64,000 nt of DNA from IMG/VR virus record IMGVR_UViG_3300044984_001421, positions 21,368 through 85,367 of that record; one strand, 5' to 3'. Source of the stretch: a virus. Positions 21,815 to 54,821 of the stretch are shown piece by piece. The notes under the pieces are model-generated. The model worked only from the letters and a program-made list of their open reading frames with translations. It was not told the DNA's origin and searched no databases. The first letter of the stretch is position 1. Each line of letters begins with the position of its first letter. Both the position numbers and the translations under genes were made by a program.

Positions 21815-21891
21815 GGGTAAAGCATATCACGCCGCGCGGGCGAAGCAACTCAAATAAAAAACAGAACAATTTAATTATCTAACATTTCTGT

Positions 21892-21919
21892 TTGCTTTAT
21901 AACAAAACTGTTATAGAGT
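21892..21919 (+). promoter_or_regulatory. Sigma70-type promoter with a palindromic operator in the spacer
   Basis: TTGCTT-16 nt-TAGAGT; palindrome TATAACA-AAAC-TGTTATA at 21898-21915. Confidence 0.7.
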
Positions 21920-21950
21920 GAGGTCGTCCCCAAACAAACAGGAGCACGAA

Positions 21951-22602: not shown

Positions 22603-22826
22603 CCGCAGCACTCATCACAGAACAAATCGTGGACCCAGGCAAGAACATGATGGAGTTCATCGTGGACGCTTCCAGCATCGGACTGAAGCCGGGTGAGTGG
22701 CCTGACACACTCGCAACGAACATGGGAAACACGCTCCCGTTCGCCAAGATCAGCGCCGACGCAGAAGGAACGCATGTGTACCGGCAGATTGCCGGCGGGA
22801 TCACGCTGACCGTCCTCAACGACTAA
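22599..22826 (+). CDS. Hypothetical early protein
   Basis: GGAG RBS; DASSIGLKPGEWP...LTVLND. Confidence 0.6.
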   Translation: MTAALITEQIVDPGKNMMEFIVDASSIGLKPGEWPDTLATNMGNTLPFAKISADAEGTHVYRQIAGGITLTVLND

Positions 22827-22858
22827 AACATAATTGTTTTATTTCTTAACTTTTCTGT

Positions 22859-22886
22859 TTGCTTTCTAACAGTTTTGTTATAAAGT
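22859..22886 (+). promoter_or_regulatory. Second copy of the promoter/operator cassette
   Basis: TTGCTT-16 nt-TAAAGT with TAACA-GTTT-TGTTA; downstream leader resembles the first copy. Confidence 0.7.
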
Positions 22887-22917
22887 GAAGTTGTTCCAAA
22901 CAGACCGGAGAAACAGC

Positions 22918-26839: not shown

Positions 26840-27099
26840 ACGAAACTGAACTCGAATCTCCGCGAGATGAAATGGGCCGGCTGCTCAGTCACGGTGAGCA
26901 TTACTGGCTGGACTTGCCGATTCACCCCAATGCTGCTGCGGCTCTCGGAGAAGAACGGATGATCGTGATCTTCAACCAGACGATGGTGGCGCTCCACAAC
27001 AACGTCGCCAACCGGCTGATATTTGCCTGGTCCGGTTCGATGCGTTACCCAGGCTGCCACGGTGATGTCGTGTTTAACGAAGCTGGGGATGCAGCATGA
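26836..27099 (+). CDS. Hypothetical protein
   Basis: ATGA-coupled ORF. Confidence 0.55.
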   Translation: MNETELESPRDEMGRLLSHGEHYWLDLPIHPNAAAALGEERMIVIFNQTMVALHNNVANRLIFAWSGSMRYPGCHGDVVFNEAGDAA

Positions 27100-27416
27100 A
27101 AACAGCATCGAAACAAACCTTGGAAGCGCGCATAGCAACGCTTGAGCGTCAGCTTCAAGAAGCCATAGCAGGGCAAGCGCACACCTACCACTTCGCTGAC
27201 GCCTATCTGGACAAGGCGAGCACTAAACACCTCATGGCTTCTGGTGTGATTCTGACCATGACGGTGCTCGGTGGGAGGGCAATCTGCGAACCAGTGTTGA
27301 TCCGGGATGGGCTGTCAGACGAAACGATAGCCGCACTGAAGGCTGACATGCGCCGAAGTTACGAACTGGCGACCATGTACAAACCTAAACCGCTGCCACA
27401 AAAGGAAGAAAAATGA
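27096..27416 (+). CDS. Hypothetical phage protein
   Basis: ATGA-coupled; LMASGVIL...IRDGLSDETIAALKAD. Confidence 0.6.
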   Translation: MKTASKQTLEARIATLERQLQEAIAGQAHTYHFADAYLDKASTKHLMASGVILTMTVLGGRAICEPVLIRDGLSDETIAALKADMRRSYELATMYKPKPLPQKEEK

Positions 27417-27781
27417 GCAACAAGCACTACGCGGAACGCGACGCCATGGAACAGGGGCAGTTCTACATCGACCACGTCATGGCAATGACAGCAGAGGAAC
27501 TGCACAGCAAGGCGGACATCGCCGCAGAGTTAGCGCACCGAGACATCATCATCAAGAACCTCGAAAACCGCCTCGCTGTCTGGGAAGCCGGCACTGCTGC
27601 GGACATCTCGCGGTCGATGATCAAGACGGCAGACAAACTCATGCAGGAGCGCGATGCCATCAAGTCCGCGCTCTCCGATCTGCTGTTTGTCATCAACCCG
27701 GACAAGGACGGGTCGTTTTTCATCTGCGAAGAAGGAGCGGTAATTATCGCTGCCGCGCGGATTACATTGGAGGAATCATGA
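27413..27781 (+). CDS. Conserved phage hypothetical protein (YAERD...HV.AMTAE.LHSK.DIAAELAHRD type)
   Basis: Recognisable phage motif; coupled ORF. Confidence 0.65.
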   Translation: MSNKHYAERDAMEQGQFYIDHVMAMTAEELHSKADIAAELAHRDIIIKNLENRLAVWEAGTAADISRSMIKTADKLMQERDAIKSALSDLLFVINPDKDGSFFICEEGAVIIAAARITLEES

Positions 27782-28002
27782 GCGAGAAAAACACAGGCGG
27801 GCCGGCGTTTCCGTTTGCATTTGCAGATGAAGACCGGGTTAGTGATGGCATGACCATGCGCGATTACTTCGCGGCGAAGGCGATACCTTACGCACAAGAA
27901 TCAGGTTTCTATGACAAAACAAAGCCTGGAACTTGGGCAGAACAGGTTGCGGTTGAGTGCTATGAGATGGCCGACGCAATGCTGAAAGCGAGGGAAGCAT
28001 GA
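27778..28002 (+). CDS. Conserved phage protein (GGPAFP...GMT.RDYFAAKA...ADAMLKAR type)
   Basis: Recognisable phage motif; GGAGG RBS. Confidence 0.75.
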   Translation: MSEKNTGGPAFPFAFADEDRVSDGMTMRDYFAAKAIPYAQESGFYDKTKPGTWAEQVAVECYEMADAMLKAREA

Positions 28003-28083
28003 GCCGGCCAGGACAAGGAACAGACATCAAGGTCGCCAGCCCGGCATGCCGGATGTTCGAGCAGAAATAACCGTTTTTTTATG

Positions 28084-28112
28084 TTGCTTTATAACAGTTT
28101 TGTTTGTACTGT
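28084..28112 (+). promoter_or_regulatory. Third promoter/operator copy; probably leaderless (ATG 28119 at +1)
   Basis: TTGCTT-17 nt-TACTGT with TAACA-GTTT-TGTTT. Confidence 0.65.
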
Positions 28113-28118
28113 AAGCGC

Positions 28119-28313
28119 ATGGACAGAAAAACAGCCATCCAGGTAATCAAGGTCGCCGGATACCACGGTGATACGAAAACATTCATGCGGACCTACTGCG
28201 AGAACAGGATCAGCTTCGCCGTCGCGGATAACTTCTTCCGCAAGGGTAAGCAAGCAAAGCTGGCCGGCATGAAGTGCGACTGCAACCAGTGCAAGAAGGA
28301 GAAAGGCGAATGA
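28119..28313 (+). CDS. Small basic protein with a C-terminal CxCxxC
   Basis: ATG 7 nt after the -10 element; coupled to the next gene. Confidence 0.6.
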   Translation: MDRKTAIQVIKVAGYHGDTKTFMRTYCENRISFAVADNFFRKGKQAKLAGMKCDCNQCKKEKGE

Positions 28314-28546
28314 GCACGCACACGGTCTTACAGTGCCACAAAACCAAGTGGCACAAGAATCCGGTGTCAGGTCACGAATGGCCTGAATTCACGTTCATCA
28401 ACCGCTGGCAAGTTCAGGGCGGTGTGGCGCTTGGCGAAGTCTTCTTCAGCGAGAAAGCTGCGCAGAAGCATGCCGACTTCCTCAACAAGTTCTGCCCGCC
28501 TGAATACATCAAGCGCATCCAGGCGATAACTGCACCGAAGGAGTGA
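28310..28546 (+). CDS. Hypothetical protein
   Basis: ATGA overlap; RBS. Confidence 0.55.
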   Translation: MSTHTVLQCHKTKWHKNPVSGHEWPEFTFINRWQVQGGVALGEVFFSEKAAQKHADFLNKFCPPEYIKRIQAITAPKE

Positions 28547-28547
28547 C

Positions 28548-28895
28548 ATGGACAACAACAAGACCGCACTCATGCTATCCCAGGCCATACCGATGGGAGA
28601 GCACGACAACCCGCACGGAGAATGGATTCGGGTCCGTCTCGACGTTGTTCTTGACGCCATCGAGCAACTCAAAGACGCGGCACGTTACCGCTGGCTGATG
28701 GAGCGGATGCAGGAAGTCTATGACGGCGCTAACTATGACATTGGTCATGTCGACATAAGCTGCATGATGATCTTCGGCCGCAAAGAAGTGCGTCGCGTGT
28801 CGGCAGAAATTAGCTGGTTCGATGAGCGAGACGAAGACCTCAACTTGAGCTCGGCAATTGACCGCGAACTCCAACAACCAACAACAAAGGATTGA
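28548..28895 (+). CDS. Hypothetical protein (KDAARYRWL motif type)
   Basis: AAGGAG RBS; common phage motif. Confidence 0.65.
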   Translation: MDNNKTALMLSQAIPMGEHDNPHGEWIRVRLDVVLDAIEQLKDAARYRWLMERMQEVYDGANYDIGHVDISCMMIFGRKEVRRVSAEISWFDERDEDLNLSSAIDRELQQPTTKD

Positions 28896-28897
28896 AG

Positions 28898-29260
28898 ATG
28901 TGGATCGCACTTAATAACAGCTTCTTAAGCATTGTCCGAAAGCAGCCGCGCGACAAGTTCCTGACCGTCCGCGCCAGGGTTGCTGGCGACATTGAGCGCG
29001 TGTTCCCGGACGCTAAGGTCCAGGTCGGAGGCGGAACGGATTACAAGTTCCGCGCGCAGATCGGCGATAAGGTCGTGGCGGATGCCATCGCAAAGCAGAT
29101 CAAAGGCATCAGCTACGGCAACTTTAAGGACAGCGTGCAGGACGATGACCGGCACGATGCCTACTTCAACGTGTGGCGCGCGATGATGGCGATGCAGAAG
29201 ATGCCAGTCGACCACCGGCAAGATGCGATGTTTGACTTCTACGAAGACAGTGTCGATTGA
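28898..29260 (+). CDS. Conserved hypothetical protein (MWI...FLSIV...VRAR...DY.FRA...Y.NFK type)
   Basis: AAGGA RBS; recognisable motif pattern. Confidence 0.7.
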   Translation: MWIALNNSFLSIVRKQPRDKFLTVRARVAGDIERVFPDAKVQVGGGTDYKFRAQIGDKVVADAIAKQIKGISYGNFKDSVQDDDRHDAYFNVWRAMMAMQKMPVDHRQDAMFDFYEDSVD

Positions 29261-29262
29261 TT

Positions 29263-29326
29263 ACGCAACGCTGGCGTAACCGGCGCGCAGCGAAGCGGAG
29301 CGTCCGCGTTGACGCAAATGTTAGAA
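29263..29326 (-). repeat. attC site 1
   Basis: Minus strand TTCTAAC-ATTTG-CGTCAACG-CGGACGC...GCGCCG-GTTACGC-CAGC-GTTGCGT, with the extra C in L'' and extra A in GGACGC. Confidence 0.8.
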
Positions 29327-29344
29327 CTCAGGAGGGAATAGACC

Positions 29345-29551
29345 ATGCAACTCAGAGAGGGCGAAGTGGCTTTTGTGATGGCGCAAATTGCGCTGCTGAA
29401 CTGCGAAGTGGCTGGCATGCAGGCCGAAAACACGCACCGCCTGAACTGCGGAAATTCCGTTGCCTACGGCGCGGACGAGTTCGCGGCCGTGCGGCAGCAG
29501 TACGAGGCGCTGATCGGCAGCAACGCGATCTTAGAGATGGCGCGGTCATGA
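29345..29551 (+). CDS. Cassette 1 gene, hypothetical
   Basis: AGGAGG RBS; bounded by GTTAGAACTC (29320) and GAGTTCTAAC (29550). Confidence 0.7.
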   Translation: MQLREGEVAFVMAQIALLNCEVAGMQAENTHRLNCGNSVAYGADEFAAVRQQYEALIGSNAILEMARS

Positions 29552-29575
29552 GTTCTAACGAATGACGTGTTAGCC
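29552..29575 (-). repeat. Collapsed attC (outer R boxes only)
   Basis: GTTCTAAC-GAATGACGT-GTTAGCC; both R boxes match the far ends of the neighbouring cassettes. Confidence 0.6.
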
Positions 29576-29609
29576 ACGACACGCTAAAACGTGGCACCAC
29601 TGAGAGGAT

Positions 29610-29978
29610 ATGAACGTGCGAACTTTGACTGACCATAAGATTAACCCCGGCAATGACACGCTGACCATTACCGTGCTGGACGAACCTGGGCACGGTGGAG
29701 CAAACCACGCCTACGACATCGAAGGTGGCGAGGCGGTACCGACGCACCTGCGCTTTCAAAACGGCCCGATCAACGCGGACGGCAACGGCGTGAATGGCAT
29801 TACTCACGAGGCGTTGCTTGCGGTGCTGTGTGACCGCCTGCGTGGGTTCCAGGCGGGGCAGTATGCCTGCAAAGCGAACGCTTGCGCACTGACCCACCTG
29901 GAAGAAGCACAGCACTGGCTGCAACAGCGCACCATCGAGCGTATGCGGCGTGGCGTCGAAGGCACGCACACGGTTTGA
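29610..29978 (+). CDS. tad1: Tad1-family anti-defence sponge protein (anti-Thoeris/anti-CBASS)
   Basis: G.GGA.H.Y.I...FQ.GP...LL....DRL..FQAG....NACALTHLEEA..W...R...R..RGVEGT matches the Tad1 pattern as I recall it. Confidence 0.85.
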   Translation: MNVRTLTDHKINPGNDTLTITVLDEPGHGGANHAYDIEGGEAVPTHLRFQNGPINADGNGVNGITHEALLAVLCDRLRGFQAGQYACKANACALTHLEEAQHWLQQRTIERMRRGVEGTHTV

Positions 29979-30014
29979 TGTTATGGCCGGCATGACGACG
30001 CGAGAACTCATGCC

Positions 30015-30105
30015 GGCTAACGAACCAGCTAAGTGGCGCGCGTGACCAAGCCAAACGAAGCTGCGCCGGATGTTCGCGCGTCCCGCCTTGAGCGCCTTGT
30101 TGGGC
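30015..30105 (-). repeat. attC site 3 (long loop)
   Basis: Minus strand GCCCAAC-AAGGC-GCTCAAGG-CGGGACGCGCG...CGCGCGCCA-CTTAGCT-GGTTC-GTTAGCC. Confidence 0.85.
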
Positions 30106-30269
30106 TTCTCTGGGCGATCATCTGGCGTCGATGGATGACTGGGCCTGGCGGTCACAAGCGGCGAGTGGTGCGCGTTAAGGGGTGGCGCACAGCCATCGTC
30201 GAGAGCGACTGGGAAATGCGCGTGACGGTGACGCCGTGTTTCTCGGTTTTTGGATGGCGGTTCGATTGA
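30033..30269 (+). CDS. Cassette 3 gene, hypothetical; starts inside attC (GTG 30033 or 30042)
   Basis: Only ORF filling the cassette; stops just before the next core site. Confidence 0.5.
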   Translation: MARVTKPNEAAPDVRASRLERLVGLLWAIIWRRWMTGPGGHKRRVVRVKGWRTAIVESDWEMRVTVTPCFSVFGWRFD

Positions 30270-30273
30270 TGAC

Positions 30274-30341
30274 GCCGAACGCCTAGCTAACCGGCGCAGG
30301 CGGCCTTATCGCCTGCGTCCGGGTTGAGCGACGTGTTATGC
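30274..30341 (-). repeat. attC site 4
   Basis: Minus strand GCATAAC-ACGTC-GCTCAACC-CGGACGCAGGCG-ATAAGGC-CGCCTGCGCCG-GTTAGCT-AGGC-GTTCGGC. Confidence 0.87.
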
Positions 30342-30364
30342 CTTTGACAACGAAAGGATGCGCA

Positions 30365-31048
30365 ATGGAACACACAAAAGAGCGTTGGGAGTGGTCGGAG
30401 CACAAATTCAACGCGCCGCCGTTCGAGGGGACACTTGACCACGAATGCGGCATTTACCCACCAGACGGCGAGAGCGGCCCTGTGGCGATAGCCAGCGGGA
30501 AGAACGACGCACGGCGCATTGTGGCTTGCGTGAATGCTTGCGCCGGAGTGACGACGGAAGAACTTGAGCAGGGCGGGTTTGTTTCTGGACTGATTGAGCA
30601 GCGCGACGAGCTTGCAAAACTGTGCAACTACAACGAGCGCTTGATGCAGGACTGTTTGCGCCTGGCCGAAGAAGCGCCGCGCTGGCGTGATGTGGTTGAT
30701 GAGCTTCCGCAAGAGGCGCAAGAAGTGCTGTTTGTGCGTGACGGAAAGACAGTTCACGGCGCGTGGATTGGCGGGATATTCTGGCACAGCAACAAGAAGA
30801 TGGCCGCTGCGCAATGGATGCCACTGCCGAAACCGCCAACGGCGGCGCTTGCGAGACGGCGGCCTGTGGCGTGGATTCGGTTTTGCAGCGACGGATGCTA
30901 CGAGGGGCCGATCATGGACGCACAGATTGAAGATGTGCGAAAGCAAAGCGGGGCATGGACTCCGCTCTATAAGCACAACGACTTGCGACTGGTGCAGGTT
31001 GGTCCCTGCACATGCAGCGACCACGAATGCGGGGAGTGCATGCGATGA
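30365..31048 (+). CDS. Cassette 4 gene A: mosaic phage protein with a DUF551-like module
   Basis: NDARRIVACVNACAG motif; WRDVVDELP..AQEVL...QWMPLPKPP; AAGGA RBS. Confidence 0.7.
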   Translation: MEHTKERWEWSEHKFNAPPFEGTLDHECGIYPPDGESGPVAIASGKNDARRIVACVNACAGVTTEELEQGGFVSGLIEQRDELAKLCNYNERLMQDCLRLAEEAPRWRDVVDELPQEAQEVLFVRDGKTVHGAWIGGIFWHSNKKMAAAQWMPLPKPPTAALARRRPVAWIRFCSDGCYEGPIMDAQIEDVRKQSGAWTPLYKHNDLRLVQVGPCTCSDHECGECMR

Positions 31049-31287
31049 ACTTCGACGACTGGATGGCTACGCAAAACCCTAAGTACATGCCGACCGACGA
31101 CACTGTGGCGCTGAGGTTGCTGCGCGATTGCTGGAGAGCGGCGGAGTTCCACAGTGATAGAGCGCAGGAGCGCGAGCGGATGATTGCACTGATGCGAGAT
31201 AAGTGCAGGAAAGTCGGCGCTGACAGGACGGCGGCACCTCATGGGCGTTGCGGCATACCAGGAATGCTTGGACACCATGAGGCATAA
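31045..31287 (+). CDS. Cassette 4 gene B, hypothetical
   Basis: GGGGAG RBS; ATGA overlap; stop TAA lies within the core site GCATAAC. Confidence 0.55.
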   Translation: MNFDDWMATQNPKYMPTDDTVALRLLRDCWRAAEFHSDRAQERERMIALMRDKCRKVGADRTAAPHGRCGIPGMLGHHEA

Positions 31288-31318
31288 CGCATGAGACACA
31301 GCAGAATTGACGTATAAC
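31282..31318 (-). other. attI-like or insertion end of the cassette array
   Basis: Core GTTATGC (minus strand) with no attC hairpin and a direct GTTATAC repeat 30 nt upstream. Confidence 0.45.
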
Positions 31319-31335
31319 TGCGAAATCTAGATGTT

Positions 31336-32559
31336 TTACTTCATGCCAGCCTTGCTGATGACATCGTGATCTGCTTCGCTATCCAGATACAGATGAAGAT
31401 CTGACTCTGGAACAAGATGCGCTGCCTGGCTCTCCCAGCCAACGTCCGCAGGCGTTCCTCCGACACGAACCGCATGATAGTAGCGTGTTACAGATGACGT
31501 CCGGTCGACGTCACAGGCATAGCCTACGATCTTCACCTTCAGGCCGGATTCTTCGAACACTTCCTTGATGGCATTCGCCTGCCAGGACATCTCGTCCTCG
31601 ATTTTCCCTTTAGGGAACGTGTTTTTATAGCCGCCGAACTGGTTGGTCGGAGACACCAGCCAGACACGACCATCCGGCTCTTTGATGATGCAGCCTGATG
31701 CCGGCTTGAGTCCTTGCTTCAGATGCATGACAGGCTCGTCCAGGTCTTCCATCTGCCCTTCGACGTAATCCCACTCTTCGTCGGTCTTGGGATGATCCAG
31801 CCAGGGTGACAACGCGAGTCCGTTCAATTCGTCCGGGCAAGCGCCACCAGGGATGAACGTCGCCGTCTTCTTCTGGTCGTGCCAGGTTTCAGGCGCAGTC
31901 TGATGATTCGGGTTGTAGATCCCGACCGGCTTACCGTTGTCGCCGTTCTTCGGGTGGTAGACCTTGGGCGGCGCTTTCGGCAGCGTGTGGAACAGGAACG
32001 AGCCGCCACCCATGCCGTACTGCGGCGCGACAATCTTCTGGTGCGGCTGCGTACTCAGTTTCTTGATCTTGCCGGAGTCGGTGTGCTTGATGCGGAACAG
32101 CGATCCTTGGCGCTCGTAGTCCTTGACGACCGTGCCGTCCTTCTTTGTGTGACCGTGGACGTGCGACTTCGCCATCGTCTCGCCACCGGCAAGCATTTTG
32201 TCTACTGCCTTCTTTGCGTCTTCAATGCCGCCAGGATTCGCCCATGCCTGCGCACGGTAGTGGTCAGAGGACTTCTCTCCGGTGGATGGGTTGACGACCA
32301 GTTTGTAATCATGCCGGTCGAGTATCTCGAACACCGTGGTAACAGTTTTCTTCGTGCCAGCCTTCATCTGCCCAAACACAGATTTTGTTGCCTTTTTCGA
32401 GCCTTCACGCTTGAACACGCGCAACCGAAAGCCACGATACGGCTCGCCGACGTTGTGCTCAGTTCTTGAGTCCTCATGGGCGCGAACGGCTGTGCCGTCT
32501 TTGCGCACAAAGCCGTGGACGTGCGACTTCAACAACCCGGAGTCGGTGACAACGATCAT
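31336..32559 (-). CDS. Tagged polyprotein ending in a NUDIX hydrolase domain
   Basis: Two tags (LLKSHVHGFVRKDG, MAKSHVHGHTKKDG); Nudix box FPKGKIEDEMSWQANAIKEVFEESGL; ATGA overlap with the upstream gene. Confidence 0.85.
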   Translation of the reverse strand: MIVVTDSGLLKSHVHGFVRKDGTAVRAHEDSRTEHNVGEPYRGFRLRVFKREGSKKATKSVFGQMKAGTKKTVTTVFEILDRHDYKLVVNPSTGEKSSDHYRAQAWANPGGIEDAKKAVDKMLAGGETMAKSHVHGHTKKDGTVVKDYERQGSLFRIKHTDSGKIKKLSTQPHQKIVAPQYGMGGGSFLFHTLPKAPPKVYHPKNGDNGKPVGIYNPNHQTAPETWHDQKKTATFIPGGACPDELNGLALSPWLDHPKTDEEWDYVEGQMEDLDEPVMHLKQGLKPASGCIIKEPDGRVWLVSPTNQFGGYKNTFPKGKIEDEMSWQANAIKEVFEESGLKVKIVGYACDVDRTSSVTRYYHAVRVGGTPADVGWESQAAHLVPESDLHLYLDSEADHDVISKAGMK

Positions 32560-33050
32560 GCCGGCATCCTTTCTTCTGCTCCCATCAGAACTTTGACCGC
32601 GTACTGCAGCGACGGCTTGAGCATCACACCAAACAGCATGTCGTCGCCATCGGCCAGCTTCCACTTCTCGATAACCAGCGCAGCCAGCCAGTCGAACAGG
32701 ACCGCGACAGGATCATCGGCGAACTCATGCCGGTGAGCATGCCAATGCGGTCCCAGGTCAATCTTCAGCTTGTTGCCCAGCGTGAAGTCGTTATAGCCAT
32801 TGATGATGCTGTAACCAGGGTCACGCCCGGAGAAGATGCCGGCCAGACGGGTGATCTCAGAGCCAAGTTCAGCATGCGCAGAATCTCCCGGAACCTCTCC
32901 GGAAGACGCTGCCATGGCAATCGCTTCAACCTTGGCGGCGAATCCACCAACCAAGCCGGCGACTACATCAGGATTGCCAAGACTGGTCGCGCTTGACGGG
33001 TCCGAGAAGGCTCCTGGCGATACACGATAACGGTCTCTTTCTTGTCCCAT
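32556..33050 (-). CDS. Hypothetical protein between the kinase/ART polyprotein and NUDIX
   Basis: AAGGAG RBS; overlaps the 3' end of the giant gene. Confidence 0.6.
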   Translation of the reverse strand: MGQERDRYRVSPGAFSDPSSATSLGNPDVVAGLVGGFAAKVEAIAMAASSGEVPGDSAHAELGSEITRLAGIFSGRDPGYSIINGYNDFTLGNKLKIDLGPHWHAHRHEFADDPVAVLFDWLAALVIEKWKLADGDDMLFGVMLKPSLQYAVKVLMGAEERMPA

Positions 33051-36000
33051 TCCGAATTACTCCTTAACGATTTCGCCAGCGTCTGGCCTTTAAGTTGAGC
33101 CACGAAGCCAGTGTCTGGCGGCAGCATGATAACGTCGATGAATACGCCTTGCGGGTGGTTGTGACCGCCAGGCTGAACATCGACTACCAGATACCGCTGG
33201 CCCGGCAACGTTGTCAGTTCGCCCTCACTGCCGAGAGAGCCTGTGCCATACGTCGGCGTTGCTTTGCACCCTGCCGCGCAGCGAATCCGCATCTTGATCT
33301 GCTTGCCGTCCCCGTTCGTAAAGTGCGGCGAGTCGCCCCAGCTTTCGTGGAACGAGGTACACATCGAGTCCGTGTTCTGCAGTATAGCGCCCGGCTTGGT
33401 GGCGAGAAGCTGCTTGGTCATCGACTTGCCAGCCGTGTCGTCGTCCATCCATCGCCACATCTGCGTGCCTTCAGGAAGATCCACAGCGTCGTCGTAGATG
33501 CCAGCCGTCACCTTGTTGATCGGCGTCGAGTCGTATGACGACTTGCCATGCGACCACAGATGGTTTGCAGCACCAGAACCCTGCACACTTGAGATGTAGG
33601 TCTTGGTCGTGCTCCTGACCTTTTGATAGGCAGCCTTGAGCATTCCAGCGAACGATGTTCCTGACTTCTGCCAGAACCACTTCGTCCTTTTCAACAACGC
33701 GACAGCATCGCCTTCATCGATCTGGCACAACTTCATGAAGTACCCGAGACGGTGCTCCTGCGGGATTGTCGTCACGTTCTGGCCTGGCGCGAAAGAACCG
33801 ACCGCATCGGCAATCTCGCTGACCAGACCGAAGCTGCCAAGCGACGGCATCTCCAATGTTTCGACAGGAGGATAGCCAATCGACTGCAGCGTCTGGACCA
33901 GCGACGCCCACTGCTGCTGGATGTGGTTGGAAGGATGCTCTGTAATCGGCTTCTTGCCGATGGACTGGCCGGTCTCCTTGTCCACCGCGTCGTAGTGGTA
34001 ATCCTTCAACGCCTTCAGGTTGCCTTGCATGGCGAAGGCTGCCAGAGCCGCGCTGTCGGCGCTGTTTTTGTCGTTGACGTGCTGCTTCGAAGATACCGGC
34101 TTTCCGCCGTTCAGCGTGTTGAAGTCAAGCGGCGGCTTGATGTCGGCCGGGTCGACGGTCAGCTTTGTCTCATCGACCGGAGGCGTATCCCACTGGTCGA
34201 CAATTCCCATCTGCTTCAGGACGTCAGCGCGCCTGGCAATCAGCTTCTTGGCAAGCGCGGCCTTTTCCGCATCCGTGCCAGGCCCGGCAATTTTGCAGAG
34301 TTCTTCGATTTGCGACGGCTTCAACTTGTTCAACTGCTTGCCACCCCAGGCAATCGATGCGTCCGTAGCGCCGGCAAAGACCGCCGCAGCCTTGGCGTTC
34401 TTGCCGTAGTCCTTCATGGTCTTCAACTCGGCAACCGTGTCGCCGAAGTCCGCGCCCTTCTTGCCGCCCATGGCACGGTAGTCGAGCGAACCGCCCACGT
34501 CGATGCGGACAGCGCCGCCTGAACTGTTGAGCAGCAGGTTGTCGTTCGCCATGCCGACGACATCCCAGTTGCCGATCCAGGCGTCGATGGCGAATGCCTG
34601 GTGTGCGCCAGCTGCGCTGGCAAGATTCTCAGCGCTGCCCTTCTTCATCCCATCAACCCACTTCGAGGCGATACCCAGCTTGCCGTCCTTTTCGACCAGC
34701 TTCAGCGTCGGAACATCGACGCCAAGCATCTGGTAGAACTTGGCAGCCAGGAATTCGCTGCGCACCATTTCGGCGTCGGCCGGGAACTTGCAATACCACT
34801 CCTGCCCGCCTTTGTCCTTGAACTTTCCGCCAGGGTTTGAACCCAACTGCGGACCAGTCTGCGGCCAGGAATCCATTACCGAAACGTGGTCGCCAAGCTT
34901 TGACTTGGCAATCGAGATCGGCGCTGCCGGTTCAACTTTGTGCCAATGGCCGTTTTGGAACACCAGCATGCCATCCGCGCCCTGCTTGGTATCGCCGTCC
35001 TTCGGGCTGGCAGATTGAGCGGCAGTAGAACCCAGTGCAGCGGGGTCAACGCCTTCTGCTTCCGGATCGAACTTGCCAAGCGCAGCGGCATGCATTTGCT
35101 GGCAGAACTTGTAGAACTGTTGACGACGAACAAGCGTCGAGATCGATGTACATTTTCCTGTTTTGAATCCAGTGACGTTTTGCTTCGCCGAAACAGAGCC
35201 GTCGTTGTGGAAAGTGACGTACTGCTTCAACCCTGTAACTCCGCCATTCAATACTGCGTTCTTTATCGCAGTCGAGATGTTGACGTAGATTTTTGAGTTT
35301 TGATGCGGATCAAGCGTCTCGTAATCCGGTACCGGAACTGCCGCTATCTGCTGCGCCTTGGTCAGTTTTTTCTTCTTCTTGAAGACGATGACAATCGGCG
35401 GAATCTCGGTGGGTATTGGCTCGAAGCCGGAAGAGCCGACATAGCTGTAACCGTTTGCGCCCTTCATTCCGACCAGCTTGATCGCAGCCTTGACCGCCGC
35501 GTCGTTGCTGGCATGGACTTCGTCGCCGCTGTGGCCTTTCTGCCCGATCTTGCCGTAGGTCTTGGTCAAAACAGTGCCATGGACCTCGACCTTGTAGAAC
35601 TTGTTGTGCCCTGGTTTTTTGTTTTCCATGTGCGCAATCCACTTGTACCCGGTGGCAGGCTGCGCAGCAGGAGCCGCAGGAGCTGCAGCCACACCCTTGA
35701 TCTTGTCCAGCATTCCGGAATCCGGCATGTGAACGCCGAACATCTTGTCCAGCGTGTTGCGGACGTCGTTTTTGTCGAACGCGGACCATGGGCCAGAACC
35801 GCTACCATCGGCATCGGATGTGCCAATTTGGTACTCTTTCAGGTCATTGTCCCAGCCCACATAGATGGTTGATGTGGCTGTGTGCTCAAGCAGGATCACG
35901 TTGTTCCCGCTGAACCCTTCGTCGTTCATCGACACTTGCCAGGTGCCGGATGGCGCAGGAGCATCGGACGCTGCCGGCTTGGCCGATTCCTGCTCGGCCT

Positions 36001-38674
36001 TTTCCTTCAGAAACTCCTGCTGTCCATTGGTCAAAGAATGCCAAAGCGCCCACATGGTCTTGTCCGTGTTGTCGGTCTGCGGCATGCCAGCCGAGATCCA
36101 CAACTTGAGCGCGTGCTCGTCTTCAGCAGACACATTGGATGGAGCAACCTGCAAGTGCCAGCGACCGTTGAACAGGACGTAGTTCTTGCCGTTGATTTCC
36201 TTGACGTCGCCCTCTTTCGGCCCGCCTTCCTGCGTTTTCTGGCCTGGATGAAAGGCCAGGTTGAGCATCTTTATCGGGTCAGCGCCTTCGTTCTGGACAG
36301 CAACCTCGACCGCAAGTTCATAGGACGCTGAGTGCATCGGCGGCGATGCGGGAGCAGGAATCTCGCCGGCCAGCATCGAGAACATGGCAGCCTTCCAGCC
36401 GTTCTTGCTGTAATCCTGTCCGGTCAAGATGTTCTTCCAGGAGCCGTCCTTCTGCTTCTGGTAGTTGTGCCCTTTGTACGAAGCGTTCACCGCCATCTTG
36501 CCAGCGGCAGCATCCATCTTGCCGGCCGTTTGCATGGCCTGGTCGAGCGCGTACATCGGAGAAGACCAGCCGTCGCCGTCCAGTTCATCGTCGATGAACG
36601 ACTGATAGAAGCCATCGGCAGTCTTGACGACCTTCACATGGTGCCCGTTTACGTTGTCGAACAACACAGTCTCGCCGGCAGCAGGAGGAACGTCAGGCAT
36701 TACCGGAGCACCGACCTTGCCGCCTTGTTTCTTGTTTTCCGCCTTCAAGTGCTGGACTGCCGTCTTCAACGCGGAAGGTTTCAGCCCTGCGTTGTTCGCC
36801 AGAGCCGTAACGACACGCTCCAGCGCTTCACTCGGAACGTGGGCGAGGACCGACATATGATCAATCACGGCGTTGATTGCTTCCTGCGACGGCATGTCGG
36901 GAGTGGATGGCTTCGAAGCTGCAAGCCACTGCTCTCCTGCCTTGTCGATCAAGTGACCAACTTTATCCAGCCCATGCTTGGCAATCGCCGCACTTATGTG
37001 CTGCTGGCCGTTCAGTTCCTCGTAAGTCATTGCTTCGTGCTGCTCGACAGTCGGCACCTTGCCGGCATCGAGCGAGGCGTGCCAGCCATCAACGCCAGGG
37101 ATGGTGTGCGGGTCAACGTCTGGCGCGACCTCTGATTCATGCAGCCACACGGCAACCTGCTTCGGGTTGAATCCGTTCTTTTGATACGTCCCTTGATCGA
37201 CACTGGATAGGTGGGCATACACCGTCTCGTCGGCCGAGAGCTTTGCGCCGATGGCGAGCAGATACCACTTGCCACCGTCGTAATCGACGACCTTCTTGTC
37301 GGCCATCTTCGCCTGGTATTCTGCCTTTTCTTTTTCGGCTAAAGACGGCGACTTGTGCCAACGCCCGTCCTTGAAGGTCAGCGTCCCGCCTTCGCCTTGC
37401 TTGGTGTCGCCATCCTTCGGCGAATCATCCGCTTGCAGCACCACCTTTGCAGTACCGGCAGCGAGCGCAGCGTGCAGCGTCTCCTTCGGGATTGAGACGG
37501 TGTTCTTCGGGCCAGGCACCGTCGCTCCGACCTTGTGCATCTGGTAGGAGTCTGCGCTCTGGTTGTAGATCGTCCAGTCGCCCGCGTTCATCTTGGCGTA
37601 CTGGCTGTCCAGCTTCAGCACAGCGCCGGTCTTGAGGTCCGGGTGCTTGGCAGGCTCTGGTACCGGAGCGGCAATGTTCGCGGCATTCCAGCCGACAGAC
37701 CACTCCTGCAGCGCGTCCATGTATTCGGCATACGGCAGATGGTTGTGCGCCTGCAAGAAGTCCTGGTCGATACCTGCTGCGTGCGGCTTTCCAGCAGCGA
37801 ACGCCGCTGCGCCGTATTCCTTCGGGGTCATGGGCTTCTTGTCGTTCGCATCGACATGAACAGGCGACGTGTCGCTGTTTTCCGTTTTCTTCGACACGAC
37901 ACCCATCAATGCCTCGGCCTTTTCAGCGCCAATGGCCGACTCGATATCTGTCGCCATTTTGGCGACTTTGACCGGGTACTTAGCTGCGTACTCGAAGTAC
38001 GCCTTCTTCTGGCCGGAAGTCGGCGTCTGGCCGGCGAGCATTGCCGCCTTCCAGCCCGAAACAGCAGCGGACAGCGAAGCCTCGGCCTGCAGATCGGTGG
38101 CGTGCGCCAGGACCAGCATCGCCTTGTCGTGGTCGCCAAGCGCGCCGAAGTCTTTCAGTTCCGCCGACAGCTTCTTGTGCGCGGCTTTCTGGTAGTGCGA
38201 GCCTTGGCCGTTTCCGACCTTGGCATGGTCGTGGTCGTCCGAGACGTTGACCATCTTGTGATGGGCATGGATTACCGTGCCGTCCTTCTTCACCGACGCA
38301 GGAATCCACATCTCCTTTTTCACGGTCGCCTTCAGCAAGTCCTCGGTGAACACCAGTATTGACTTGTGAATCGGCACGCCGGAAGACTTCGCGTTCTGAA
38401 CAGCCGCATGCAACTGCTCGGCGGTTGCACCTTCGCCGCCGAATAGATCGTTCGTGCATTTTTCAGGCTTCTTCATGCATTCGTCAGAGAACGGCGACGC
38501 CTTCATGGGTGGTGCTTTCGGACGGGCGAACAGATCAGACGTGTGCGCGTCCTTGGAGGCTCCGCGCGAGTTTGAATGCGGTGACACCTGGACGACGCGA
38601 CCGTTGGCAAGGCGACGCTCGTAGCCACGCACAGCGCCCTTGATGATGTCGGTGACGAAAAACATGATGGTCAT
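32963..38674 (-). CDS. Giant polyvalent protein: tag variants, three short repeats, WGR domain, PI3/4K-HipA-like kinase, C-terminal ADP-ribosyltransferase
   Basis: NKFYKVEV...YGKIGQKG (WGR); GSNPGG...WYCK...E.LA...DAWIGNWDVVG...DN...RIDVGGSL (kinase); WR...MCTS...SEGELTTLPG (R-S-E ART). Confidence 0.78.
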   Translation of the reverse strand: MTIMFFVTDIIKGAVRGYERRLANGRVVQVSPHSNSRGASKDAHTSDLFARPKAPPMKASPFSDECMKKPEKCTNDLFGGEGATAEQLHAAVQNAKSSGVPIHKSILVFTEDLLKATVKKEMWIPASVKKDGTVIHAHHKMVNVSDDHDHAKVGNGQGSHYQKAAHKKLSAELKDFGALGDHDKAMLVLAHATDLQAEASLSAAVSGWKAAMLAGQTPTSGQKKAYFEYAAKYPVKVAKMATDIESAIGAEKAEALMGVVSKKTENSDTSPVHVDANDKKPMTPKEYGAAAFAAGKPHAAGIDQDFLQAHNHLPYAEYMDALQEWSVGWNAANIAAPVPEPAKHPDLKTGAVLKLDSQYAKMNAGDWTIYNQSADSYQMHKVGATVPGPKNTVSIPKETLHAALAAGTAKVVLQADDSPKDGDTKQGEGGTLTFKDGRWHKSPSLAEKEKAEYQAKMADKKVVDYDGGKWYLLAIGAKLSADETVYAHLSSVDQGTYQKNGFNPKQVAVWLHESEVAPDVDPHTIPGVDGWHASLDAGKVPTVEQHEAMTYEELNGQQHISAAIAKHGLDKVGHLIDKAGEQWLAASKPSTPDMPSQEAINAVIDHMSVLAHVPSEALERVVTALANNAGLKPSALKTAVQHLKAENKKQGGKVGAPVMPDVPPAAGETVLFDNVNGHHVKVVKTADGFYQSFIDDELDGDGWSSPMYALDQAMQTAGKMDAAAGKMAVNASYKGHNYQKQKDGSWKNILTGQDYSKNGWKAAMFSMLAGEIPAPASPPMHSASYELAVEVAVQNEGADPIKMLNLAFHPGQKTQEGGPKEGDVKEINGKNYVLFNGRWHLQVAPSNVSAEDEHALKLWISAGMPQTDNTDKTMWALWHSLTNGQQEFLKEKAEQESAKPAASDAPAPSGTWQVSMNDEGFSGNNVILLEHTATSTIYVGWDNDLKEYQIGTSDADGSGSGPWSAFDKNDVRNTLDKMFGVHMPDSGMLDKIKGVAAAPAAPAAQPATGYKWIAHMENKKPGHNKFYKVEVHGTVLTKTYGKIGQKGHSGDEVHASNDAAVKAAIKLVGMKGANGYSYVGSSGFEPIPTEIPPIVIVFKKKKKLTKAQQIAAVPVPDYETLDPHQNSKIYVNISTAIKNAVLNGGVTGLKQYVTFHNDGSVSAKQNVTGFKTGKCTSISTLVRRQQFYKFCQQMHAAALGKFDPEAEGVDPAALGSTAAQSASPKDGDTKQGADGMLVFQNGHWHKVEPAAPISIAKSKLGDHVSVMDSWPQTGPQLGSNPGGKFKDKGGQEWYCKFPADAEMVRSEFLAAKFYQMLGVDVPTLKLVEKDGKLGIASKWVDGMKKGSAENLASAAGAHQAFAIDAWIGNWDVVGMANDNLLLNSSGGAVRIDVGGSLDYRAMGGKKGADFGDTVAELKTMKDYGKNAKAAAVFAGATDASIAWGGKQLNKLKPSQIEELCKIAGPGTDAEKAALAKKLIARRADVLKQMGIVDQWDTPPVDETKLTVDPADIKPPLDFNTLNGGKPVSSKQHVNDKNSADSAALAAFAMQGNLKALKDYHYDAVDKETGQSIGKKPITEHPSNHIQQQWASLVQTLQSIGYPPVETLEMPSLGSFGLVSEIADAVGSFAPGQNVTTIPQEHRLGYFMKLCQIDEGDAVALLKRTKWFWQKSGTSFAGMLKAAYQKVRSTTKTYISSVQGSGAANHLWSHGKSSYDSTPINKVTAGIYDDAVDLPEGTQMWRWMDDDTAGKSMTKQLLATKPGAILQNTDSMCTSFHESWGDSPHFTNGDGKQIKMRIRCAAGCKATPTYGTGSLGSEGELTTLPGQRYLVVDVQPGGHNHPQGVFIDVIMLPPDTGFVAQLKGQTLAKSLRSNSEWDKKETVIVYRQEPSRTRQARPVLAILM

Positions 38675-48682: not shown

Positions 48683-49089
48683 GGTGAGACAACACGGTAG
48701 GCGACAGAGCCAATATGAAGCTCTCCACCGGGCTGCACCGTGAGTGATTCGTTGATATTCAAATTTCCTTCGTCGCCACCGGTCAGTCCGACAGTTCCAT
48801 CAAAAACAGAATCTCCGGAAACGGTTGACGCGCGGAACCAGACAGCATCTTTGCCGCCTGATGTGTTTGTATCCGGAGTCAACGGGAGCGATAGAATCAC
48901 ACCGTTGACAGCAGGATTGAATGCCGGTAATCCGAACCGAAGCGTTGCGAGCGGAATGTCCGCCGGCGCTATGTCGCAAGATGCTGGCTTCGCATCCCCG
49001 TAGACGTGCAGATACCCGTCATCAAGACTTGAACCAACAGCATCCGCCTGCAGATTGACGGCGAACGTCGAAACCTTCGTCTCACGCAT
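48679..49089 (-). CDS. Hypothetical structural protein
   Basis: L..Y...PA...LA...A.WFR....FDGTVG pattern. Confidence 0.6.
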   Translation of the reverse strand: MRETKVSTFAVNLQADAVGSSLDDGYLHVYGDAKPASCDIAPADIPLATLRFGLPAFNPAVNGVILSLPLTPDTNTSGGKDAVWFRASTVSGDSVFDGTVGLTGGDEGNLNINESLTVQPGGELHIGSVAYRVVSP

Positions 49090-51703: not shown

Positions 51704-51719
51704 ATCTTCACGTCACGAC
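51704..51719 (-). promoter_or_regulatory. Putative late promoter overlapping the terminase stop codon
   Basis: GTCGTGACG-TGAAGAT. Confidence 0.5.
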
Positions 51720-54301: not shown

Positions 54302-54821
54302 CGAGCACGTCACGCATCGACCTCACGCGTTCCGGAGAACGATCAATCTGGACGCTTGTCTGAACCGTGTTGTTGATGATGGTGTCGGGAGACTTCCCAA
54401 GCACCGACTCCTGCGTCTTGGCAATTGCAGTCGCCGCCGCATTCAGTTCGGCATAGCCGGCGTTCACGCCGTCGCGCTGAACCTTGGTCGATACCGTCTT
54501 CGCAATGAGAACATTCGAGTTCCGAAAGAACGCTTCTAGCTTTGTCCGCTCGTCGGCCAGGGTGTTGATTACTCGCTGATCTGTTGAATCTTTCTGTTGA
54601 ATTTCGGCCTTTATTGCCTCAACCCTTTGAACCGACTCAACTTTTTTTTCAACAAGCTGTTGAATTTCGCCGCCCTTCTTCCAGCCTTCTGCCTTCGCCT
54701 TCTTGCTGATCGAGCTTCTATCCTTGATCGCCACTTCATCCCTGGCAGTGATATCCGCCAAAGACAGGCCAGCCTCAAAGAATGACCGAGCAACGCGCCA
54801 CTGTTCGTCCGTGTATGCCAT
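54288..54821 (-). CDS. terS: Terminase small subunit
   Basis: N-terminal HTH (W...FEAGLSLADI...SISKKAKAEGW); directly upstream of terL. Confidence 0.75.
   Translation of the reverse strand: MAYTDEQWRVARSFFEAGLSLADITARDEVAIKDRSSISKKAKAEGWKKGGEIQQLVEKKVESVQRVEAIKAEIQQKDSTDQRVINTLADERTKLEAFFRNSNVLIAKTVSTKVQRDGVNAGYAELNAAATAIAKTQESVLGKSPDTIINNTVQTSVQIDRSPERVRSMRDVLDAAL

Follow-up and report, generated by a model that had tools for sequence, protein, structure and literature searches.

Integrons are said to serve bacteria as stores of anti-phage defence cassettes, a view reportedly due to Darracq et al. 2025 and Kieffer et al. 2025 in Science. Phages can also carry clusters of attC sites without an integrase (CALINs), and a survey by Qi et al. 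2023 in Front Microbiol (PMC9892861) describes 17 CALINs in phages, with orphan methylases as cargo, and IntI1-dependent recombination for 5 of the 6 phage attC sites tested. According to the AntiDefenseFinder survey, integrons are one kind of element in which anti-defence genes occur (PMC11370490). Sponge proteins of the Tad1 family bind the nucleotide signals of bacterial defence systems. In CbTad1 (PMC10680739), residues F82, N92, R109 and R113 form the pocket for glycocyclic ADP-ribose (gcADPR) and 2',3'-cyclic GMP-AMP (2',3'-cGAMP), and mutating them abolishes the binding of both ligands; cyclic trinucleotides are bound at the hexamer interface via R90 and T97, and the spectra of cyclic dinucleotides vary among Tad1 homologues. 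The present analysis concerns a Tad1-type gene at positions 29610-29978 of a 64,000-nucleotide stretch, here called the window, which covers bases 21368-85367 of an 85,367-base IMG/VR virus record (IMGVR_UViG_3300044984_001421; CheckV completeness 93%). This gene is, with good probability, one of four integron-type cassettes in an attC array of a temperate lake-water phage.

Like the phage CALINs of Qi et al., the locus is an attC array without IntI in a phage genome, and the orphan methylases found there and in the sister arrays described below represent counter-defence cargo (PMC9892861). In contrast to those CALINs, the cargo of the window is a signal sponge, nearly all genes are reversed, two sites are collapsed, and the same cassettes are common to several uncultured phages and to one phage-like contig that bears IntI (PMC9892861). 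With bacterial defence integrons the array shares the recombination sites, the one-gene modular logic and the arms race; here, however, the carrier is a phage, the cargo acts against defence, and the element has no attI, cassette promoter (Pc) or IntI. Phage anti-defence islands likewise consist of small accessory genes clustered at the end of a small-gene operon, whereas the units in the window are each bounded by a defined recombination site, which provides a mechanism of turnover (PMC11370490). Tad1 sponges and phage attC arrays have each been published already; what is new is the sponge as cargo, the backward genes, the attC of Tad1 collapsed to 23 bases, and the recurrence of the Tad1 and open reading frame (ORF) 30365 cassettes across phage arrays. 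In the literature on Tad1 with integrons, on attC with phage anti-defence and on phage CALINs, we found no sponge as cassette cargo, no reversed phage cassettes and no identical cassettes common to phage arrays and an IntI-bearing element; the supplementary cassette lists of Qi et al. may hold more.

The original prediction recognised a Tad1 pattern in ORF 29610-29978, and the translation contains all five motifs on which it relied (GGANHAY, FQNGP, DRLRGFQAG, NACALTHLEEA and RGVEGT). The comparison of sequence and structure with Tad1 that it had named as a check also came out in its favour. A phmmer search against all chains of the PDB places CbTad1 from a Clostridium botulinum prophage first (7uav, 8kbh and others; E 2e-16, residues 19-121 of 122), with CmTad1 at E 5e-15 and the first unrelated chain at E 0.27. 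The protein matches PHROG 2428 (E 9e-33), and a large protein collection holds 2924 homologues; the 120 homologues listed all carry PF24729 (Acb2/Tad1 hairpin), and most of them have 120 amino acids (aa), for which reason GTG 29616 is probably the true start. An AlphaFold model computed from 43 homologues (mean pLDDT 87.5) predicts strands within residues 2-47 and helices at 64-80 and 86-112. Foldseek against the PDB returns 20 matches at E<=0.001, all of which, among the matches listed, are Tad1 entries with template modelling (TM) scores of 0.69-0.79; the best is 8smd_A (E 4.7e-9, TM 0.78), and the next match beyond the 20 has E 0.14. In the HMMER alignment, F82, N92, R109 and R113 of CbTad1 correspond to F80, N90, R107 and R111, so that all four pocket residues are kept and the gcADPR/cGAMP pocket appears intact. 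Family, predicted fold and aligned pocket residues together confirm, at the level of sequence and model, that ORF 29610-29978 encodes a Tad1 homologue.

The predicted protein belongs to the same length class (120-122 aa) as CbTad1 (7UAV, 7UAW, 8SMD, 8KBE-H), CmTad1 (8KBB-D) and SBSphiJ7 Tad1, and its modelled fold agrees with that of CbTad1 and CmTad1, an N-terminal antiparallel beta sheet followed by two long C-terminal helices. It shares with the known sponges the F/N/R/R pocket, the threonine of the trinucleotide site (T97, kept as T95) and a phage-borne gene; the host of the phage is probably a freshwater proteobacterium and not a Firmicute. A Tad1 fold with a shifted ligand range, which may not counter Thoeris in its host and binds another nucleotide signal instead, is an unlikely alternative. 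Identity to CbTad1 is only about 33%, the loops that surround the pocket differ, seven residues are deleted after the GGANHAY motif, and the trinucleotide-contact arginine R90 is replaced by K88, a single conservative change; homologues of Tad1 are moreover described as differing in their cyclic dinucleotide spectra (PMC10680739). On the other hand, the four gcADPR/2',3'-cGAMP residues and the T97 equivalent are retained, and across the 43 homologues the columns of F80, R107 and R111 are invariant, that of N90 nearly so (90% or more).

The second part of the original prediction was that the ORF sits between matching core sites, GTTAGCC at 29569-29575 and GGCTAAC at 30015-30021. The two 7-mers alone prove nothing, since the window shows no excess of the strict core GTTRRRY (68 matches, with 88.7 expected from shuffles) and GTTAGCC lies outside that consensus. 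A covariance model of the whole repeat (R2, described below), searched with filters off over the 64 kb and both strands, places both 7-mers within real attC elements. It reports four matches in the window, all on the minus strand between 29263 and 30341, with the next best match anywhere at E 2.3; in the whole 85,367-base record the same four sites and no others are found, and R2 gives no match to the left of the gene at 28898-29260. The four sites share one strand and are spaced 227-439 nucleotides (nt) apart, with small ORFs between them. The GTTAGCC and GGCTAAC motifs are hence confirmed, by their place in whole-repeat sequence elements, as cassette borders.

Together with a remnant site recognised by eye, these elements delimit an array of four cassettes that spans 2.1 kb (29263-31325) at the end of a plus-strand operon of small genes (Table 1). 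Read along the minus strand, the remnant (31325-31281) is followed by the cassette of ORFs 31045 and 30365 with its attC (30341-30274), a cassette of 168 nt with its attC (30105-30015), the Tad1 cassette with its collapsed attC (29575-29553), the ORF 29345 cassette with its attC (29326-29263), and finally the backbone gene 28898-29260. The first bases of each cassette, read from the sequence in this order, are complementary to the outer box of the cassette's own attC in 8/8, 6/7, 7/7 and 8/8 positions. Known attC sites measure about 57-141 nt. The full sites of the window fall into this range at 64, 91 and 68 nt; the two collapsed ones (23 and about 45 nt) lie outside it. In the collapsed site of Tad1, which contains GTTAGCC, the two outer boxes remain and 49 of the 69 model positions are gone, and this copy of Tad1 is therefore probably no longer separately mobile. 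ORF 30033, listed with 78 aa, starts at a GTG that falls inside an attC, so it is either shorter or not real.

Table 1. Coordinates of the attC array, its cassettes and neighbouring features (window positions).
Feature	Position	Strand	Basis or remark
Full attC (64 nt) of ORF 29345 cassette	29263-29326	-	R2 38.3 bits, E 6e-8; far end joined to phage backbone
Cassette ORF, 68 aa	29345-29551	+	ORF list
Collapsed attC (23 nt), Tad1's own site	29553-29575	-	R2 13.8 bits, E 0.25
Small hairpin in Tad1 leader	29573-29595	+	Fold; pairing kept also in homologues without attC
Tad1-family sponge gene	29610-29978	+	122 aa from ATG 29610; probably 120 aa from GTG 29616
G+C-rich hairpin after Tad1	29980-30021	+	-12.9 kcal/mol, z -3.8, 0/200 shuffles as good
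Full attC (91 nt) of 168-nt cassette	30015-30105	-	R2 40.8 bits, E 1e-8; crossover box is GGCTAAC
Doubtful small ORF, 44 aa from in-frame ATG (own count)	30135-30269	+	Inside 168-nt cassette
Full attC (68 nt) of two-gene cassette to the right	30274-30341	-	R2 62.1 bits, E 2e-14; best family match
Cassette ORF, 227 aa	30365-31048	+	Weak DUF551-like middle part
Cassette ORF, 80 aa	31045-31287	+	Overlaps preceding stop codon
Remnant attC (about 45 nt), right end of array	31281-31325	-	By eye: GGCATAAC complementary to GTTATGCC at 30336-30343
Last backbone gene, 120 aa	28898-29260	+	End of plus-strand operon; stop codon abuts array
442-aa protein with C-terminal NUDIX domain	31336-32664	-	Directly after array, opposite strand
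1903-aa protein with WGR domain	32963-38674	-	
Portal	49082-51529	-	Protein family search
Large terminase	51713-54313	-	Protein family search

The repeat family itself emerged when the flanking sequences of Tad1 loci in viral contigs, the 24 closest, were compared; they share a junction motif upstream of Tad1. An 11-base form of this motif occurs 17 times in 822 kb of Tad1 loci plus the window, 13 times on the Tad1 strand, with a chance estimate of under one. Full elements of the family measure 56-70 nt. An outer box with AAC at its end opens the element and is separated by a short unpaired spacer from an inner box; a G+C-rich stem with bulged bases and a variable loop follow, and the mirror inner box, a second spacer and an outer box with GTT at its start close it. 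A first covariance model (R1) was built from 7 short sites and refined to R2; initial MAFFT alignments of long and short sites (A1, A2) misplaced the loop and were not used for the model. R1 finds 76 sites at E<=1 in 887 kb, which form one-strand arrays with spacings of a few hundred bases. In the alignment of these sites, which was fitted to the model and whose figures accordingly lean towards it, 89.3% of the cells pair, compared with 70.9% in shuffled and 26-46% in slid controls, and 17 of 20 pairs show changes on both sides, values reached by 0 of 500 shuffles. In the inner helices 95-96% of the cells pair and 12 of 13 pairs vary on both sides; variation is almost absent from the AAC/GTT triplets, whose three pairs are the same in 72 to 74 of the 76 sites. 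To our knowledge, Rfam contains no attC family. By their sequence architecture the repeats are attC sites in which structure is kept more than sequence; a plain phage terminator or a REP-like (repetitive extragenic palindromic) repeat was considered and rejected. Simpler procedures were less informative: the default repeat search of the window did not group the sites, and the four intergenic spacers, folded alone, reached z values of only -1.6 to -3.9 and did not reveal the site architecture.

A link to integron integrases is provided by genomes in which the same family occurs beside IntI. A two-part pattern of the family retrieves 11 contigs among 185,579 species genomes, including bins of Methylotenera, Propionivibrio, Sulfurifustaceae and Methylobacter and the isolate Aromatoleum anaerobium. 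IntI exceeds the TIGR02249 cut-off (265) in 2 of the 5 pattern genomes searched (Methylotenera G006, 479.3 bits; Propionivibrio G007, 496.7 bits) and in 1 of 5 viral records searched, the phage-like contig G004 (465.7 bits). One-strand arrays of R1/R2 sites adjoin IntI in all three (L104 in G004, L084 in G006, L103 in G007) and begin a short way upstream of the intI start. For L084 and L103, a junction between G and TT (G/TT), about 130-140 nt from the intI start, marks the border of the first cassette with non-attC sequence, as in an attI-type site, and in G004 Tad1 is the second cassette from intI. In the latter contig (L104, 6004-7661) IntI is directly followed by a RusA-like resolvase, with a primase-helicase and a DNA methylase nearby. 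In the genome of Aromatoleum anaerobium (G008, C2:366490-373055), which also holds an array of the family, the IntI model matches in pieces with in-frame stops, which looks like a decayed integron.

These three arrays also settle the orientation of the cassettes. The model strand reads away from intI in 3 of 3 IntI-linked arrays and hence corresponds to the conventional attC top strand; a first parse, which took the gene-sense strand as the top strand, was overturned by them. Since the gene-antisense strand had served to build R1, the cassettes of Tad1 and its neighbours are reversed, and each gene, in its own reading direction, is preceded by the attC of its cassette. The arrangement extends beyond the window. 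Of the 65 segments between sites, all but 4 have an ORF of >=35 aa; in 43 of these 61 the longest one runs antisense to the top strand. Among the 12 ORFs with at least 198 aa the figure is 10, and both exceptions belong to the Propionivibrio integron. A reversed cassette ORF for a C5-methylase in the Methylotenera integron (L084, 5028-5645, minus strand) extends 22 bases into the neighbouring attC before its stop codon, and the C-terminus of this methylase thus depends on the adjacent cassette.

The distribution of Tad1 across loci indicates that cassette and non-cassette forms coexist. A full-length attC lies directly upstream of Tad1 in 8 of 80 loci and is missing from the remaining ones, including copies with 82-92% protein identity (L009, L010, L012); Tad1 is therefore a regular phage gene, one clade of which moves in cassette form. 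When 25 loci were compared with the window by blastn, similarity was confined to the Tad1 unit and to the attC at 30268-30345. Six loci match from the Tad1 leader onwards (from 29547, 29560 or 29561) and eight more from the coding region; of the former six, five stop matching at 29982-29992, and L020 continues to 30041. Within six loci the upstream attC has a mean identity of 71% between Tad1 copies and the downstream one 42%. In this small sample, Tad1 identity and attC identity are not significantly correlated over 15 pairs from 6 loci (upstream rho 0.34, p 0.21; downstream rho -0.38, p 0.16), a comparison in which one downstream stretch has only 14 nt and from which L020 and L055 were dropped as the anchor motif was missing.

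Homologues of ORF 30365 occur in 6 viral loci, each of them part of a dense array and immediately preceded by an attC (35 matches in 31 kb, on one strand). The records that carry them include two complete genomes with direct terminal repeats, G011 (9 sites) and G015 (6 sites), and in five such records no IntI-like gene was found. Sister arrays hold 3 to 13 sites each; the largest number, 13 sites over 12 kb, is found in G002, whose portal is 56% identical to that of the window, and the array of G003 is placed alike relative to a PHROG 1221 gene. The same Tad1 and ORF 30365 cassettes thus recur in other phage arrays with different neighbours; several of the sister contigs are fragments that count as viral on the strength of IMG/VR and a few phage genes. 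In contigs from lake metagenomes the two best attC sites of the window recur at a several-fold higher summed depth and with several different flanks, which begin at 29267/29324 and at 30278/30338-30341.

Part of this evidence may be read in another way. The repeats might descend from attC and act in phages mainly as short homology patches for general or phage homologous recombination, perhaps also as RNA-stabilising or terminator hairpins, with IntI playing no present role. The attC at 30274-30341 is 98% identical over 62 nt to an attC of L004 that has unrelated neighbours, many flanks are seen in lake metagenomes, and 10 of 11 array-bearing viral records have no IntI above the cut-off. The similarity of Tad1 copies ends before the 3' hairpin and not at the crossover, and crossovers in the middle of attC would, by reasoning, also keep the complementarity between cassette start and end. 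Homology patches do not account well for a structure that is kept by compensatory changes and not by sequence identity alone, nor for a true IntI at the canonical array end, with an attI-like junction, in one phage-like contig and two bacterial bins. In addition, 5 of 6 attC sites of other virulent phages recombine with IntI1, as shown by Qi et al. 2023 (PMC9892861). Taken together, we regard this explanation as improbable, and the cassette interpretation remains the preferred one.

Several observations weigh against the cassette interpretation and should be considered together. IntI was not found in the 85 kb record, where the top TIGR02249 match is an ordinary Phage_integrase with 14.4 bits. 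The similarity at the 3' side of Tad1 stops just past the stop codon and not at the crossover point, and other recombination must therefore also have acted. Two of the five sites of the window are degenerate, the collapsed site of Tad1 with its E of 0.25 and the remnant at 31281-31325, which R2 does not report at E<=10. The attC models were built from this very family and are not those of IntegronFinder, their E-values being rough, and reversed genes are atypical for integron cassettes. For the protein, the match to PF24729, a model that spans the helical hairpin only, stays below the gathering cut-off (18.9 vs 27 bits, E 0.0017). No sigma-70-like promoter is predicted in 27800-31500, terminator-like sites in the same region number 3, with 4.2 expected from shuffles, and contigs from RNA libraries that are identical to 29581-29800 and 30049-30287 possibly represent DNA carry-over; they are a weak hint of transcription.

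Since no promoter is predicted and an operator-like repeat lies at about 28080, the cassette genes are likely expressed by transcription that runs on from the phage operon. A+T-rich elements with an inner palindrome were observed at 21858-21933 and 22825-22900 (two copies that are 75% alike), and a third was seen by eye at about 28076-28112. Such elements precede blocks of plus-strand small genes and are candidate phage promoter or operator sites, of which the copy at about 28080 would drive the operon that enters the array. The hairpin after Tad1 has a 3' arm that ends in GGCTAAC; among loci L002-L011 its sequence varies and its pairing is kept. One lake contig combines a post-Tad1 hairpin of the L004 type with a gene of the window type.

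Because the record is without IntI, the array is classed as a phage CALIN and not as a complete integron; IntI, attI and Pc do not occur together on the phage element, and the genes are not co-directional with the attC top strand, Tad1 being antisense. The idea of the original prediction that anti-defence genes ride on cassettes is supported: Tad1 is bounded by an attC family that elsewhere adjoins a true IntI, but the array is a phage CALIN and not a bacterial integron, its genes are reversed, and the attC of Tad1 has collapsed.

That the array belongs to a phage is indicated by its neighbourhood. To the right lie the genes for the NUDIX protein, the 1903-aa protein, the portal and the terminase, and to the left the plus-strand operon of small genes with a PHROG 1221 protein, so that phage genes stand on both sides within one contig. 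The window also encodes a DarB-like helicase of 1717 aa and a tRNA-Thr, and in the record, outside the window, an ordinary Phage_integrase gene stands beside a gene for a single-stranded DNA-binding protein (SSB); this integrase gene is the reason to regard the phage as temperate. The stretch is present in lake-water metagenomes from many studies. It is very improbable that the array is not part of a phage, be it an assembly chimera or a bacterial chromosomal integron miscalled as viral. The record is a metagenome assembly without terminal repeats, attC-like repeats can mis-join contigs, and short Logan contigs do break at attC sites. Against this stand, besides the phage genes on both sides, nine lake-water runs (six of them possibly the source of the same DNA) that contain >=90% of the words sampled from 28800-31500. 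Arrays of this kind are also found in independent viral genomes with direct terminal repeats (G011, G015), and in G003 the array and the PHROG 1221 gene are positioned relative to each other as in the window. RNA runs X20-X24 contain 0.06 of the sampled words, and the uncovered parts of the stretch in runs X14, X15 and X18 are uninformative.

Regarding the neighbouring genes, the gene at 28898-29260 has no Pfam or PHROG match. The NUDIX gene is the sole piece of 27000-32000 with relatives in cultured phages (blastn, 66-71% identity, Pseudomonas and Morganella phages), among them Pseudomonas phages Dolphis and Jeremy, where it is annotated as 'nucleotide phosphatase'; the array is absent from all cultured phage relatives found in this blastn search of 27000-32000. 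The NUDIX gene could be a further counter-defence gene, related to nucleotide signals or to NAD. With 866 aa the terminase ORF is long; two stretches of it match PHROG 38, primase and DnaC-like P-loop families are matched by the N-terminal 300 residues as well, and in the relative G002 stop codons lie within the terminase match; the long ORF may reflect an insertion or a split gene.

The other small cassette ORFs (29345, 30033, 30365 and 31045) had been proposed as strong candidates for new anti-defence proteins. Support for this comes from the company such genes keep in sister arrays. Among 55 array ORFs, Pfam identifies N6_N4 methylases (2), Dam (2), a C5 methylase (1), pentapeptide repeats (1), an RNA ligase (1), DHH/DHHA1 (1), SSB (1) and several DUFs, and PHROG matches comprise 45 families, including methyltransferases, PAPS-reductase-like (3'-phosphoadenosine-5'-phosphosulfate) proteins, DHH phosphoesterase and RNA ligase. 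These functions may be regarded as typical of phage accessory and counter-defence genes. The proposal is weakened in that this is association only, that the window ORFs match nothing informative, and that ORF 30033 is shorter or not real. ORF 29345 has no Pfam or PHROG match and no relative in viral contigs by pattern search, and in the Atlas it matches only phage hypothetical proteins (0.89). ORF 30033 has no viral-contig relatives by pattern search. ORF 31045 has no Pfam or PHROG match, no informative Atlas match and a single relative, in viral contig G015. For ORF 30365 nothing informative beyond the weak DUF551-like part was found in Pfam, PHROG or the Atlas. The Atlas yields only sub-threshold leads for the cassette ORFs of the window (0.80 and 0.89), and a tblastn comparison of these ORFs, other than Tad1, with the Tad1 loci gave nothing relevant.

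By sequence comparison, ORF 30365 is probably a fusion of two modules. In L112, L113 and L114 its residues 1-158 make up a cassette of their own, with an attC behind it, and residues 166-213 are placed after a homologue of ORF 31045 in L117. One lake contig joins 30842 to 31040 and skips 30843-31039; with 26 letters on the shorter side and a depth of 2, it was not counted.

Based on this dataset, we propose the following course of events. Early in infection the Tad1-type protein would, by homology, form an oligomer that binds and hides the gcADPR of Thoeris, and it probably also binds some cyclic nucleotides of the cyclic oligonucleotide-based anti-phage signalling system (CBASS); with the gcADPR signal hidden by the sponge, the host effector would never be switched on. 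The cassettes may have been delivered by IntI acting in trans through attC x attC recombination, where a chromosomal integron of the host or a co-infecting phage that bears IntI would be the source of the enzyme. As they are placed backwards relative to the attC top strand, they would be read through from the phage operon, and the Tad1 copy of the window would by now be fixed, its own attC having collapsed.

As a tentative extension, which we consider possible and somewhat short of an even chance, freshwater phages may share a pool of integron cassettes that is specialised in counter-defence and comprises sponges, orphan methylases, RNA ligase and phosphoesterases. The hosts would probably be Betaproteobacteria (relatives of Methylotenera, Propionivibrio and Aromatoleum), and the cassettes would be built backwards for transcription by the phage and not by the integron promoter, and moved by integrases of the host or borne by phages. 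Phages appear to trade counter-defence genes as bacteria trade resistance genes. If IntI truly moves these cassettes, phages would acquire counter-defence genes via the site-specific mechanism that spreads antibiotic resistance, and the exchange could be fast and independent of homology. In practical terms, small uncharacterised phage ORFs bounded by these sites would then offer a filter, an enriched set for screening against panels of defence systems. If the shared counter-defence pool is true, it would be the viral mirror image of the bacterial defence integrons, and its cassettes would represent a ready-sorted library of new anti-defence genes.

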